Assembly: GCA_030167865.1 (NCBI GenBank) | Contig: JALAGF010004555.1 | Location: 1-54,973 of the forward strand | Direction of reading: 5' to 3' | Origin: Craspedostauros australis | Lineage: Eukaryota | DNA: 54,973 nucleotides | Shown here: one piece after another, positions 24,971-52,472 of the stretch | How the letters are laid out: every line of letters starts with the position of its first letter | Numbering within the stretch: position 1 is the first letter of the stretch | Made by a program: the position numbers and the translations under genes | Notes under the pieces: model-generated | Seen by the model: only the letters and a program-made list of their open reading frames with translations | Told to the model about the DNA's origin: nothing | Database searches by the model: none

Positions 24971-25576
24971 ATAGACAAAAACAACAGTACCAGATAATAC
25001 AAGCGAAATCCAATTCGACCACAAACACAACTACTCCGCACTAATACATTACATAGAGAGAGAGCGCGCGAGTATTCAACACAATGATGTTGGCAGAACA
25101 TGGCGAATCTGAAAGCAAGCGCAGTTGAGGAATAGAAGAATCTCCACACGGACACTGACAATCAAATAATACAGAACAAGCAGACCTGCGAGTATCGGCG
25201 TCGTTGGATGAATGACGACACACAGCGCTCCGCTGCGGAGTGAATTTATTCCATTGTTCTCTATTATTCCATTGTATAATAGTGGTTTACGAATGAGAGA
25301 GAGAGAGAGAAGCAATAGGGCCCGCACGTATTTTTGGAAGTACCAATGTGTACGCATGTAATATGGACGCATGTCTTGCATCATAGTCGTACACCGTACC
25401 AGCACGTTCCGAAAAGAACCAAGCCACCAATGGATGCCATTGTCTTTGTCACTTGTGGTCATTCGCATTGTATTGCATTGCACTGCGTTGCATGGCGTCG
25501 TTTTGGATTTGATAGTCGACCCTCCGTATCGTACGAGCGCAACGACCATAGTATTCTTACACACATATGGTCGTTG

Positions 25577-25653
25577 TCTGTCGTTGTTCAGATGAAATCT
25601 GCTGCCCTGCTCTGTCGCAATCGAGCAGACTCCATCGTCATTCCGCACGGAGA
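25577..25653 (-). promoter_or_regulatory. SECIS-like element (selenocysteine insertion sequence) in the 3' UTR
   Basis: RNA reads AUGAC (25641-25637), GAUGGAGUCUGCU, 20-nt apex CGAUUGCGACAGAGCAGGGC, AGCAGAUUUCAUC, UGAA (25590-25587). This gives a 13-bp uninterrupted helix (2 G-U pairs) stacked on a UGAN/NGAN tandem G.A quartet, a UUGC/GCAG apical mini-helix and a weak helix I. It lacks the canonical apical AA. Confidence 0.7.
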
Positions 25654-25724
25654 TCCATTCCTATCTCAGCCTATCAAAACATTCGATAGGACGCCATGTC
25701 AAGCGCCGCAGGGAATGCAGCGCT

Positions 25725-26042
25725 CTACTTGTCAGTCTGATCTTTGTTGTCGGCATTGTCAGCCTCATCGTCGTCATCGCGAGAGAATTCGATGCCGCTC
25801 CACACGCCGGTGCCCTTGAAGGTGTCGGTCTGACCGGCTGCGTAGCCTGCCAGATCGATGGCGCTCTTGATGGATCAGTACACGACCATGGTGGGTGGTG
25901 CGAATGCGTTCAGCTGCGTCGAAGATGGAGCGCTGGTTGTGGCGACGGTGGCAGTAGTTGTGCGTGGTTGCACAACGAAGGCAGAAGTGGTGGTGGTGAG
26001 GACGGTGACGAAGTAAGCCAGCTGGAGAAGGAATTTGGACAT
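25725..26042 (-). CDS. Small plastid-targeted protein (105 aa) with an in-frame TGA at codon 56; candidate selenoprotein
   Basis: Manual translation: MSKFLLQLAYFVTVLTTTTSA-FVVQPRTTTATVATTSAPSSTQLNA-FAPPTMVVY[TGA 25877-25875]SIKSAIDLAGYAAGQTDTFKGTGVWSGIEFSRDDDDEADNADNKDQTDK[TAG]. Signal peptide plus SA-F cleavage motif plus S/T-rich transit peptide; ACCATG start context; C-ending codon bias continues after the TGA; SECIS-like hairpin downstream. Confidence 0.8.
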
Positions 26043-26067
26043 GGTCGATGTTGTTGCGCTGCGTTGC

Positions 26068-26102
26068 TTTGCTTTACTTTACTTTACTTTACTTTACTTT
26101 GC
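26068..26102. repeat. (CTTTA/CTTTG)n pentanucleotide microsatellite just upstream of the 26042 ATG
   Basis: ctttgctttactttactttactttactttactttg. Confidence 0.85.
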
Positions 26103-26788
26103 GTTGTTTGTGTTCACAACGGCGATTATGACATGAACCAACGAGTGCGCACGAAATGAACAAACCGAAGAATGCGATCGTCAACAACAATGAGGCAACT
26201 GCGATGACGTGGGAACAATCATGATTCAGCGCATCGTCTCATTCGTTGGTGATTGGAGGAATGAGTTGTCGTCACAGTGTCAGTACTAATGACTCATTGG
26301 ACTCAAGCCACCACAATGAGCGACAAAAAGCCGGCAACTCACATTTCACCGGTCTTCTAATTGCGAGATGGACATTTGCGATGTACCAACACGCAAAGTG
26401 TTCACATCTCCACCCCATCGCTCCCACAAAACACATTGCTGGACAACTCCTCAACATTCTGGTCGTAGTATTGCCTTTGTCATCGTCCTTGGCGTTGATC
26501 TTCCCGGCATTCTACAACAATCCACAACACTTTGAGACAGACGAATTCAAGGAGGAGGCGTGACATTGGGCTGTACGTATAGTACCATACGGCCTACACG
26601 GACGACTACCATACTCGCACTCTGTTCACTGCCATTATACATACACTCAAAGTGGAAGCAGACACTCCTGCTGAAGACCTGAGATTGGACTTCCAGAGTT
26701 GCACGCACTCTCTTCGCATTGCACATTGCGCATTGCAGACGGCAGCTACACTGCGGCAGTACGGAAATAGTGGGAAATAACAACAAAA

Positions 26789-49151: not shown

Positions 49152-49988
49152 ATGTCGCCTTCCAACGAACGCATCGTCATTGCTGACTACCCCTTCAAGT
49201 CCATCCACAGATCCGACGGGTTGGGCTGCAGCAGCGAAGACTCATCATCATCGATGATGTCCACAATCGCACGCAACGACAATTCTGCCAAACAGAAGGA
49301 GGCATCATCTCATGATGCAACACCTGCATCGCCGTCCTCGACAATGCAATCATCTACTGCAACTTCACCTCTATCGGCTGCATCATGCACGGCGGAAGAG
49401 ACTGACGATCATGGTGAGAGCAACACTGTTCAAACCACGGAGTTGGATGCAGACCCTCGTAGTCTCTTTACAACGAGTATCACCACAAACGAACGAGCGG
49501 ACAGTCAGAGTAGCACAGACAAGATTGAACAACGATCAGCACGCAAGTCTGTCCGATTCGCAGAACACAACGAAGTGCACGATACCTTGCACGTCAACGA
49601 CTTCACAGATGTCGAATTCTCCTCCTCCTGGCTCTCCGACGTCGACTTCCAAATCATCACGGAGATGGCCAGAATAACGATCGAGTTGATCGAGCTGGGA
49701 GAGTCCGAAGATGCCAGCCCGCAGCTCTGCTTCCGCGGACTGCGGTCAAGGACATGGTTTGCTGAGGAGAAGCTGCGCCGCAGACACCAGAACCTCGTGG
49801 CCGTCGTTCTGGAGGAGCAGGACTTTCAAGCATCGCGCGCCATCTGCGATCACGAGTACATTGCGGAACTGTGCAGCATGCACACCAAGGACAGCGTTCT
49901 GCGTGCTCGTGCACGTGCCGAACAGGATCATTGCGATGCTATTCAAGAGCCGAATAGCTGCCGCACGAACATGAAGCACTTTGTTTGA
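49152..49988 (+). CDS. Uncharacterised diatom-type protein (KSVRF...W....F...CFRGL family)
   Basis: CACCATG at 49152; Ser/Thr-rich N-terminus, then KSVRFAEHNEVHDTLHVNDFTDVEFSSSWLSDVDF, CFRGL, VLEEQ, IAELC...ARAEQD. I recognise this pattern from expanded diatom hypothetical-protein families. Confidence 0.8.
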   Translation: MSPSNERIVIADYPFKSIHRSDGLGCSSEDSSSSMMSTIARNDNSAKQKEASSHDATPASPSSTMQSSTATSPLSAASCTAEETDDHGESNTVQTTELDADPRSLFTTSITTNERADSQSSTDKIEQRSARKSVRFAEHNEVHDTLHVNDFTDVEFSSSWLSDVDFQIITEMARITIELIELGESEDASPQLCFRGLRSRTWFAEEKLRRRHQNLVAVVLEEQDFQASRAICDHEYIAELCSMHTKDSVLRARARAEQDHCDAIQEPNSCRTNMKHFV

Positions 49989-50669: not shown

Positions 50670-52472
50670 ATGATCCGAATCAAGGAAAGAAGCTTGGCTG
50701 GTGTCTTCCTCCTGCTGATGCTGTCGCTTTCGTCTTTCCATGAGGTTGCGGAAGCATGGGCGCCAAACCCAACAACAACAACGTCGACGGCGTCGACATG
50801 GTCTCTGGCATCTTCGCGCGCAAGGCTGGGCCGTCGCAGGGTCAACTCGGCAAGAGCATGGCGATCTGACAATGCCAAGACGACAACGGCATCGTCATCA
50901 TCACGGTCATCGTCATGGGCATTGGCTGCCTCTGCAGCTGCCACTGACACAAACAATATCAGAAGCAGTGAAAACGATGAGTATGAACTGACGGACACGG
51001 GATACACCGCGTATCCACAGCAAACACCCCACTCGGGACGCCACTTCCTGCCATCTCATCCCTACTTTCGTCAGAAGGGGGAAGCGAATCCTGCATCCAA
51101 GCGCAAGCGCATCAAAGCCTTCCTGCGCAAGAGATTCGGGCGTGGCCGCAACAGCGACCCGCAGCAGAAGTTCCGTGCACCTTCCTCTCGAGATGCCAAG
51201 CAAAAACGATTCATGGAAGGTTGGTACTACCGGCTCACCATTCCGGACGAGGATGCAAGCTTCGCCTTCATCATGTCCATCGAGGATCCCGGTCGCAACG
51301 TGGCGACTGGCAAGGACGAGCAGAAGTCGTTGAAGCTGGCGGCGCTGCAAGTGATGGGACCGCACGACGAGTACTTGGTGCAGGCCGATCCCGACGACAC
51401 CAAATTCTGGGCCTACGAGTCACGTCAGGCGTTGGGCTGCACCTTCGGATGGAAGGAAGGATATGGGGAGGCTGACAGCAGCGATGGTGTGCCAGTGCCA
51501 GCATTGCATCCCGATGATTGGTTGCAGCAGGTGGAGACGGGATTTCAAATGCTGCCCAACCGCTTGCAAGGTAGGATGCAAGGCAACGACGGCACGGCAG
51601 GTGGTATTAACGATGGCGAACCGGGATACTGCGACTTCGATCTGCAGATCACGCCCATCTCCGGATGGGGAGACAGCTCCAAGCAGTTCTCCACCGCCGG
51701 TTGGCTGGCCTCGTACTCCGTCTTCGAACCGCACTGGCAGGTGACGTTGGCCGACGCACGTGCCAGCGGAAGTGTGACATGGAAGGGCAAGCAATACGAC
51801 GTAACGGATGCGCCATTCTACGCGGAGAAGAATTGGGGTGGCGCCTTCCCATCCAAATGGTATTGGATCCAATGCAATTCCTTCACGGATGGCAGCCAGC
51901 AGGAGCAAGCACGTTCGTATAGCGGTGAGGACGGCGCGTTGCCCACGCTGTCTGTGACGGCAGGCGGGGGCCGGCGCAAGCTGCCATTTTCCTTCTTAGG
52001 CTCGAACACGGAAGACCTGGGCATGGTGTCCGTGCACTACAACGGAACATTCTACGAAGCAGTGCCCTGGACCGGCACCATGCAATGGGACGTGTCGGCG
52101 TGGGGACAGTGGAAGCTGAGCGGTCGATGCACCGATGCCAAGAACGACAAGGTCTTCGAAGCCGAAGTGGTGGCCGTGTGCTCGCAGGATGCGGGAGTCG
52201 TGCTGCGGGCACCGACGCAGGATGAAGGTCTGGAGTACTTCTGCAAGGATTCCTTCTTGGCGCAGACGACGCTGTCCCTGTGGGAATTGGAGTACGATGC
52301 GACCAGCAAGGAGTACCGCCGTGGCGAAGTGATCATCGACAAGGCAGTGAGCTCGCAGGGCGCTGTGGAGGTCGGCGGAGGACCGTGGTGGAGCCCATGG
52401 CGCGGTGTGTCCAGGATGAAGCAGCCGATGAAGTTCCTGGTGGGTCTGCCGTACCGATTCTCCCGCAGGTGA
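50670..52472 (+). CDS. VTE1: Tocopherol cyclase, plastid-targeted
   Basis: QTPHSGRH, RFMEGWYYRLTIP...SFAFIMSIEDP, STAGWLA...FEPHWQV, YAEKNWGGAFPSKWYWIQCNSF and EVGGGPW; signal peptide with AEA-WAP (Trp variant of ASAFAP). Confidence 0.95.
   Translation: MIRIKERSLAGVFLLLMLSLSSFHEVAEAWAPNPTTTTSTASTWSLASSRARLGRRRVNSARAWRSDNAKTTTASSSSRSSSWALAASAAATDTNNIRSSENDEYELTDTGYTAYPQQTPHSGRHFLPSHPYFRQKGEANPASKRKRIKAFLRKRFGRGRNSDPQQKFRAPSSRDAKQKRFMEGWYYRLTIPDEDASFAFIMSIEDPGRNVATGKDEQKSLKLAALQVMGPHDEYLVQADPDDTKFWAYESRQALGCTFGWKEGYGEADSSDGVPVPALHPDDWLQQVETGFQMLPNRLQGRMQGNDGTAGGINDGEPGYCDFDLQITPISGWGDSSKQFSTAGWLASYSVFEPHWQVTLADARASGSVTWKGKQYDVTDAPFYAEKNWGGAFPSKWYWIQCNSFTDGSQQEQARSYSGEDGALPTLSVTAGGGRRKLPFSFLGSNTEDLGMVSVHYNGTFYEAVPWTGTMQWDVSAWGQWKLSGRCTDAKNDKVFEAEVVAVCSQDAGVVLRAPTQDEGLEYFCKDSFLAQTTLSLWELEYDATSKEYRRGEVIIDKAVSSQGAVEVGGGPWWSPWRGVSRMKQPMKFLVGLPYRFSRR

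Follow-up and report, generated by a model that had tools for sequence, protein, structure and literature searches.

Many diatoms and other marine algae need selenium, and part of their selenoproteome is unnamed. In eukaryotes, a UGA codon combined with a SECIS element in the 3' UTR specifies selenocysteine (Sec), with SBP2, eEFSec and Sec-tRNA(Sec) as the machinery involved. Small selenoproteins of the Rdx type carry a CxxU motif within a thioredoxin-like fold, and those of the SelK/SelS type have Sec near the C-terminus. For diatoms, 16 to 44 selenoprotein genes each have been given (PMC2375036; PMC7539508). Three selenoproteins named only as 'hypothetical protein' (1-3) are listed for both Ostreococcus species and none of them for Thalassiosira pseudonana in Table 2 of Lobanov et al. 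(2007; PMC2375036), and a 'Hypo' family is named by Jiang et al. (2020; PMC7539508), in a text without details. According to the 2007 account, SECIS elements in Ostreococcus have GUGA-type cores with long mini-stems, and O. tauri has a single ATGA-type SECIS, which is that of a hypothetical protein (PMC2375036). The consensus model of SECISearch3 is described as omitting SECIS elements peculiar to particular lineages, those of Ostreococcus among them (PMC3753652).

The gene described here lies on the minus strand of a 54,973-nucleotide stretch of DNA from Craspedostauros australis, which was analysed as a whole and is termed the window. It resembles the algal SECIS-dependent selenoprotein genes of these sources in its conserved in-frame UGA and its 3'-UTR stem-loop with an AUGA/GA quartet, and its family shares with them the lineage variants of the SECIS, with AUGA in heterokont-like loci and GUGA with a long mini-stem in Ostreococcus-like loci (PMC2375036; PMC7539508). 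Unlike the catalogued algal selenoproteins, it has no Pfam, PDB or named homologue and neither a Cys partner nor a redox box. It is very probably a nuclear gene for a small SECIS-dependent selenoprotein in which Sec is inserted at UGA56. Judged from their sequences, the members of the family are proteins of about 60 residues with a UGA-encoded Sec and a 3' SECIS, and with no Cys partner.

A small gene divided by an in-frame TGA

The original prediction had been of a minus-strand gene split by a TGA into 55 and 49 codons. When its coordinates were retraced the gene was recovered intact on the minus strand, with an ATG at 26042-26040, 55 sense codons, the TGA at 25877-25875, 49 sense codons and a TAG at 25727-25725. 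Its read-through product is identical to the one quoted and contains no Cys. The features of the locus are the following.

25725..26042, minus strand: coding sequence of 105 codons including Sec56, plus the TAG stop; homologues align over residues ~47-92
25980..26042, minus strand: signal-peptide-like N-terminus, residues 1-21, ending in TSA before F22; assigned by eye, with an AlphaFold helix at 2-22
25905..25979, minus strand: transit-peptide-like, Ser/Thr-rich segment, residues 22-46 (F22 to A46), with no acidic residues; putative role
25728..25904, minus strand: predicted mature peptide, with core M52-R88 including U56, then an acidic tail
25875..25877, minus strand: in-frame TGA read as U56; the same codon is TGA in 29/29 homologous loci
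25576..25651, minus strand: candidate SECIS element in the 3' UTR, with AUGA at 25641-25638; core, helix II and covariance-model match

A contig of public run X1 shows 0 differences over 25450-26048, the TGA included, although this run may be the window's own source and is not independent; no copy of the same stretch was found in public runs X2 and X3, and no RNA run was listed as carrying it. The 5' leader contains an (AAAGT)n/(AAAGC) microsatellite shortly before the ATG, at window positions 26049-26111, where the contigs of run X1 are broken. The idea of a tiny in-frame intron spanning the TGA was discarded, since the codons on either side are conserved as protein.

Codon 56 in proteins and in DNA

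A search of 1.84 billion representatives, run exhaustively and without a profile, returned 64 homologues (E up to 0.001), all of 40-156 residues and none of them a fused or longer form. In an alignment of 67 rows, comprising these 64, the query and two further matches, 35 rows have W in the column of residue 56, 16 have a gap, two have C and 14 have other residues. The two C entries are the query's stand-in C and P0048, and the 14 rows with other residues have N-terminal parts that are not homologous. All 20 of the clusters that were looked up derive from metagenome or SRA assemblies (JGI/IMG, ENA, Logan) and none from NCBI or UniRef; names are present for two of the 20, and they read 'hypothetical protein'.

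The codon behind this column was read from JGI metagenome contigs, which were scanned with the peptide pattern [FW][KRQ]GTGV[WY][SK][GF]. Since this motif is located downstream of codon 56, the scan treated TGA and TGG alike. The scan gave 125 pattern matches, 30 of which encode relatives (L001-L030), and the codon is TGA in 29/29 loci containing the site, L030 beginning downstream of it. These 29 loci represent about 21 distinct sequences, with a locus GC of 0.35-0.71. An earlier metagenome scan, with a pattern containing W and hence requiring TGG, gave 44 pattern matches and 0 relatives. Gene callers that switch to a Mycoplasma-type code write Trp at TGA, and the protein P0016, the one case traced in full to its DNA, matches the table-4 translation of L010 at every letter, an impossible product under table 11. 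When P0002 was compared by eye with the translation of L009, one other residue was found to differ, and the W of P0002 stands opposite the TGA. The Trp of the databases at column 56 is an artefact, a TGA translated by table 4, and it is written in the catalogues because prokaryotic gene callers switch to that table. Trp in the orthologues had been named in the original prediction as a sign against a selenoprotein; the proteins seemingly show it (W in 35/67 rows), but the DNA has TGA in 29/29 loci and TGG in none, so that the TGA and the conservation on both sides of it, proposed at the same time as marks of a recoded codon, are both found in the homologues.

In one cluster (P0048, P0074 and P0075) the protein letters are ...MVIWCSIKS..., which places C at the column. 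It could have Cys for Sec following a Trp, or a shifted Sec followed by Cys, as the W before the C may itself be a TGA. Apart from this ambiguous cluster, no clear Cys homologue at the Sec position was found in the 67 aligned rows.

The family varies in its N-terminal region. In L019-L023, L025, L026 and L028 the protein starts at the conserved Met (MPIF-U-...) and the UGA is codon 5; a Sec codon so near the start is unusual. In L022/L023 an in-frame TAA lies one codon ahead of that ATG, and the gene itself ends in TGA. A phase-0 intron follows directly after ...U-[ST]-I-K (AAG|GTA) in L003 (715-835), L006 (80-452) and L008 (1292-1377); the window lacks it. Translation through this intron, with Q as the last residue ahead of SAID, forms the beginning of many database proteins, which accounts for the non-homologous N-termini of many database entries.

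Translation beyond the TGA was assessed from the pattern of codon change. In the 29 loci, the codons flanking the TGA for Val, Ile, Ser/Thr and Lys vary synonymously (GTG/GTC/GTT/GTA, ATT/ATC, ACT/ACC/ACG/TCC/TCT, ATC/ATA/ATT, AAG/AAA), with the TGA unchanged in all of them. Close pairs of loci were also compared over the 32 codons after the TGA. Synonymous changes outnumber non-synonymous ones by 19 to 1 for L004 and L005, 19 to 2 for L019 and L022, 10 to 3 for L009 and L012, and 8 to 2 for L015 and L027. Near-invariant residues are found on both sides of U56, namely M52, V53 and Y55 before it and I58, K59, D63, Y67, G70, G77, T78, G79 and V80 after it. This shows that purifying selection acts on the frame past the TGA and that the UGA is a conserved, translated codon.

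Two other readings of the TGA have to be considered against these data. The TGA could be a nonsense allele, a young pseudogene or a base-call error at the Trp codon of an ordinary small plastid protein, as TGG and TGA are separated by a single transition and the aligned database sequences so often show W. This is very improbable, given that the W has been traced to a table-4 TGA in P0016 and lies opposite the TGA of L009 in P0002, that no locus has TGG, and that the TGA is also present in the contig of run X1, even if that run may be the window's own source. A variant nuclear code, with TGA as a sense codon throughout the organism, would likewise produce an uninterrupted protein through table 4, but it is hardly credible. 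Of the 15 window ORFs with 300 codons or more, nine terminate in TGA, although some overlap one another on opposite strands and are possibly not genes, and an ORF of 3821 codons contains no TGA. The same gene uses TGA as its terminator in L022/L023, and the loci, with their wide range of GC, come from very different genomes. TGA is an ordinary stop in this genome and no general sense codon.

The 3' hairpin and its counterparts

Downstream of the gene, 185 nt fold into three strong hairpins (z = -5.56 versus shuffles), the middle one being the SECIS candidate; the flanking ones lie on the same strand at 25702-25724, directly after the TAG, and at 25540-25577, after the SECIS. A hairpin of SECIS geometry had been predicted about 85 nt past the TAG on the strand of the gene, and its AUGA is indeed found at 25641-25638 (minus strand), 83 nt past the TAG and 236 nt past the UGA. 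After the AUGA and a C, a perfect 13-bp helix is formed by 25636-25624 with 25603-25591, closing on U-GA-A at 25590-25587, and the apical part consists of 20 nt (25623-25604, minus strand). No apical AA occurs in these 20 nt, a feature in which the element is unlike catalogued algal SECIS elements, as it also is in being unscored by the Rfam SECIS models; searches of the window and of 20 loci against Rfam, at E up to 10, gave neither a SECIS family nor any other relevant one. An AA is present 8-11 nt after the core in L003, L006, L007, L009, L012, L018, L019, L022 and L025. Functional SECIS variants without the AA occur in other selenoproteins.

With the strictest descriptor (ATGA-N, 10/10 pairs, N-GA), two sites are found on both strands of the 55-kb window, and one is the SECIS site. 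The other, at 50901 (minus strand), is a 10-bp ATGA...GA inside a 600-codon ORF (50670-52472); the descriptor sites at 50901 and 51059 (minus strand) were rejected, as both are inside this ORF and have a different fold.

Counterparts were sought in the 300 nt after the stop of 22 loci (6,044 nt; two of the 22 carry only 41 and 102 nt of 3' sequence) with a descriptor consisting of ATGA, one base, a helix, one base and GA, the background being sequence elsewhere (93,746 nt, both strands). The counts at three settings of helix II were as follows.

At least 7 perfect pairs: 8 sites in 7/22 loci (1.32 per kb); elsewhere 2 sites (0.021 per kb)
At least 8/10 pairs: 14 sites in 11/22 loci; elsewhere 26 sites (0.28 per kb)
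At least 9/10 pairs: 8 sites in 7/22 loci; elsewhere 3 sites

SECIS-like hairpins past the stop are thus 8- to 60-fold enriched over background and are present in at least 11 of the 22 loci, and all the SECIS-like cores lie 61-196 nt past the stop. Looser candidates with the same core, pairing at 6-8 of the first 10 positions, are seen in L001/2, L003, L018, L022/23, L025/26 and L028. The heterokont-type elements have in common GGAAUGAC-GAU...AUC-UGAA. Among the loci without a presequence, L022, L025 and L028 have GUGA cores with long mini-stems, and L019-L021 have an ATGA-type SECIS among these GUGA-type sister loci.

A covariance model (R1) was built from the elements of eight other loci, with that of the window excluded. 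Its best match in the 110 kb of window strand searched is 25576-25651 (minus strand), at 16.5 bits and a rough E of 0.02. The second, at 49662-49760 (plus strand), scores 15.2 bits and has neither AUGA nor UGA; this site and the descriptor site at 50901 (minus strand) are probably due to chance. R1 is a narrow model and recovered no locus outside its training set. When the window was added to the alignment, 82% of the cells of helix II pair, a percentage that is partly circular because the elements were picked partly by pairing, and in 8/10 pairs both partners have changed. The covariation score of helix II is 0.61, compared with 0.06-0.30 for slid partners, and 0/500 shuffles reach 0.61. The recurrence of a covarying SECIS-type 3' hairpin in relatives, which the original prediction had put forward as support, is observed.

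No convincing SECIS was found in six of the approximately 20 groups that could be assessed (L004, L005, L011/13, L014-17, L024 and L029), with alternative pairings examined. Long CT-rich/GA-rich palindromes occur in the 3' UTRs of L011 (2013-2143), L014 (980-1091) and L027 (1720-1827), where they come after a conserved AUGACGG(U/C)CAC half-site; in L011 a matching GUGAC-GA is located 418 nt from that half-site. This region may represent a SECIS with a very large insertion. The miRNA-like Rfam matches in the same three loci (best E ~4e-4) were set aside as generic hairpins.

Conservation of the TGA and of the frame downstream shows read-through and does not by itself give the identity of the inserted residue. 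The most serious alternative is a conserved, programmed UGA read-through in which a standard residue, Trp, Cys or Arg, is incorporated by a near-cognate tRNA and the hairpin is a stimulator or unrelated. The silence of the Rfam SECIS models, the lack of an apical AA in the window hairpin and the absence of a resolving Cys or CxxU motif are all in keeping with it. Nevertheless, we consider it improbable. What recurs in the 3' region, AUGA or GUGA with GA in fixed geometry around a covarying helix, is the specific core of a SECIS. Read-through stimulators act next to the UGA, whereas the element found here is in the 3' UTR, beyond the true stop and not beside the UGA. Furthermore, a sense codon would serve a standard residue at no cost, and a UGA kept in 29/29 loci of distant algae would be hard to explain. 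Selenocysteine insertion is thus the preferred reading. By analogy with the established eukaryotic mechanism, the kink-turn of the SECIS would recruit SBP2, eEFSec and Sec-tRNA(Sec), and the ribosome would insert selenocysteine at UGA56 and terminate at the TAG.

Predicted protein, probable plastid targeting and related selenoproteins

The signature of diatom plastid import, of the ASAFAP type, consists of a signal peptide, a Phe at +1 and an acid-free, Ser/Thr-rich transit peptide. By eye, [GAS]-F-[ATGRS] is found after the hydrophobic stretch in L001, L003-L005, L007-L009, L012, L024 and L029, and the window gene has TSA-F; in the heterokont-type loci, as in the window, a Ser/Thr-rich stretch free of acidic residues comes next. 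We infer that the heterokont-type members, that of the window included, carry a bipartite presequence of the plastid type, and import into the plastid is likely in this organism. The ER signal peptide of the precursor would be cleaved before Phe22, followed by the transit-peptide-like stretch, in which the homologues show little conservation. What reaches the secondary plastid would then be a peptide of about 55-60 residues, with its mature N-terminus predicted a few residues before ...TMVVY-U-SIKSAIDLAGY...

An AlphaFold model based on a 35-row alignment has a mean pLDDT of 67.5 and a pTM of 0.29. It includes the helix at residues 2-22 (pLDDT ~86-91), a helix at 51-69, beginning shortly ahead of the Sec, and a short hairpin in the region of the invariant GTG (pLDDT ~70-76), with a disordered tail. 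In this model the Sec is in the first turns of an amphipathic helix, beside the near-invariant Lys59. The absence of Cys, of CxxU/UxxC motifs and of a thioredoxin fold, proposed from the outset, agrees with these data, as the window protein and the conserved cores of the compared loci are free of Cys, the core of about 40 residues is too short and the model consists of a helix and a hairpin. No Pfam family was matched by four family members and no match was obtained in a PDB profile search. The best score in the ESM Atlas (0.85) was to unrelated small algal plastid proteins, which serve as a lead only. Pattern matches in GTDB prokaryote genomes numbered 14, none of them relatives; no separate N-terminal fragments were found in a short-protein search, and a search with the presequence-less form gave one weak match (E 0.19). 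As to function, a tentative guess from Sec chemistry is a single-Sec redox protein that would react with a thiol or partner outside the protein by way of a selenenylsulfide or an intermolecular diselenide.

In relation to other small selenoproteins, the family resembles SelW, SelT and SelH of the Rdx type in its size, in the hydrophobic, strand-like segment preceding the Sec and in the position of Sec at the start of a helix, but it lacks a Cys two or three residues from the Sec, its domain of about 40 residues is too short and no sequence match exists. With SelK/SelS it has in common a short length, a single Sec and a disordered, charged region, but its Sec is N-terminal in the mature or primary product, four residues past the conserved Met. 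The closest described candidates are the hypothetical proteins 1-3 of Ostreococcus and the 'Hypo' family. Compared by description only, these are likewise Mamiellales selenoproteins with no assigned function, and the ATGA-type SECIS of L019-L021 is a further likeness (PMC2375036; PMC7539508). Unlike the present family, the Ostreococcus hypotheticals are not listed for the diatom T. pseudonana, and neither a presequence nor plastid targeting is mentioned in the text of the source (PMC2375036). Since L019-L021 are of the ATGA type among GUGA-type sisters, and in O. tauri the gene with the ATGA-type SECIS encodes a hypothetical protein, the chance that the family is one of these three, again by description only, is about even.

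No description of the motif, plastid presequence or function of such a family was found in the literature, and the peptide strings GTGVWS, KGTGVW and QGTGVW were not found in the literature searched. The family is either new or at most merely catalogued, within a known kind of selenoprotein. A fuller proposal can be offered only tentatively. It would be an undescribed, widespread algal family with neither thioredoxin fold nor Cys partner and with M-x-x-x-Sec as its ancestral form, in which the bipartite presequence gained by heterokonts yielded a selenoprotein of the secondary plastid, hidden by eukaryotic gene models that stop at the UGA and by metagenome gene callers that write Trp.

If the reading as a selenoprotein is correct, a conserved protein of about 60 residues with Sec and without the usual redox box would represent a new chemical context for this amino acid. 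A check at the level of protein would wrongly dismiss it, as the catalogues list Trp at the Sec position, and 'W' columns in other short metagenome proteins may hide further selenoproteins. Apparently delivered to the plastid in heterokonts, it would be a candidate for connecting plastid function with the supply of selenium.
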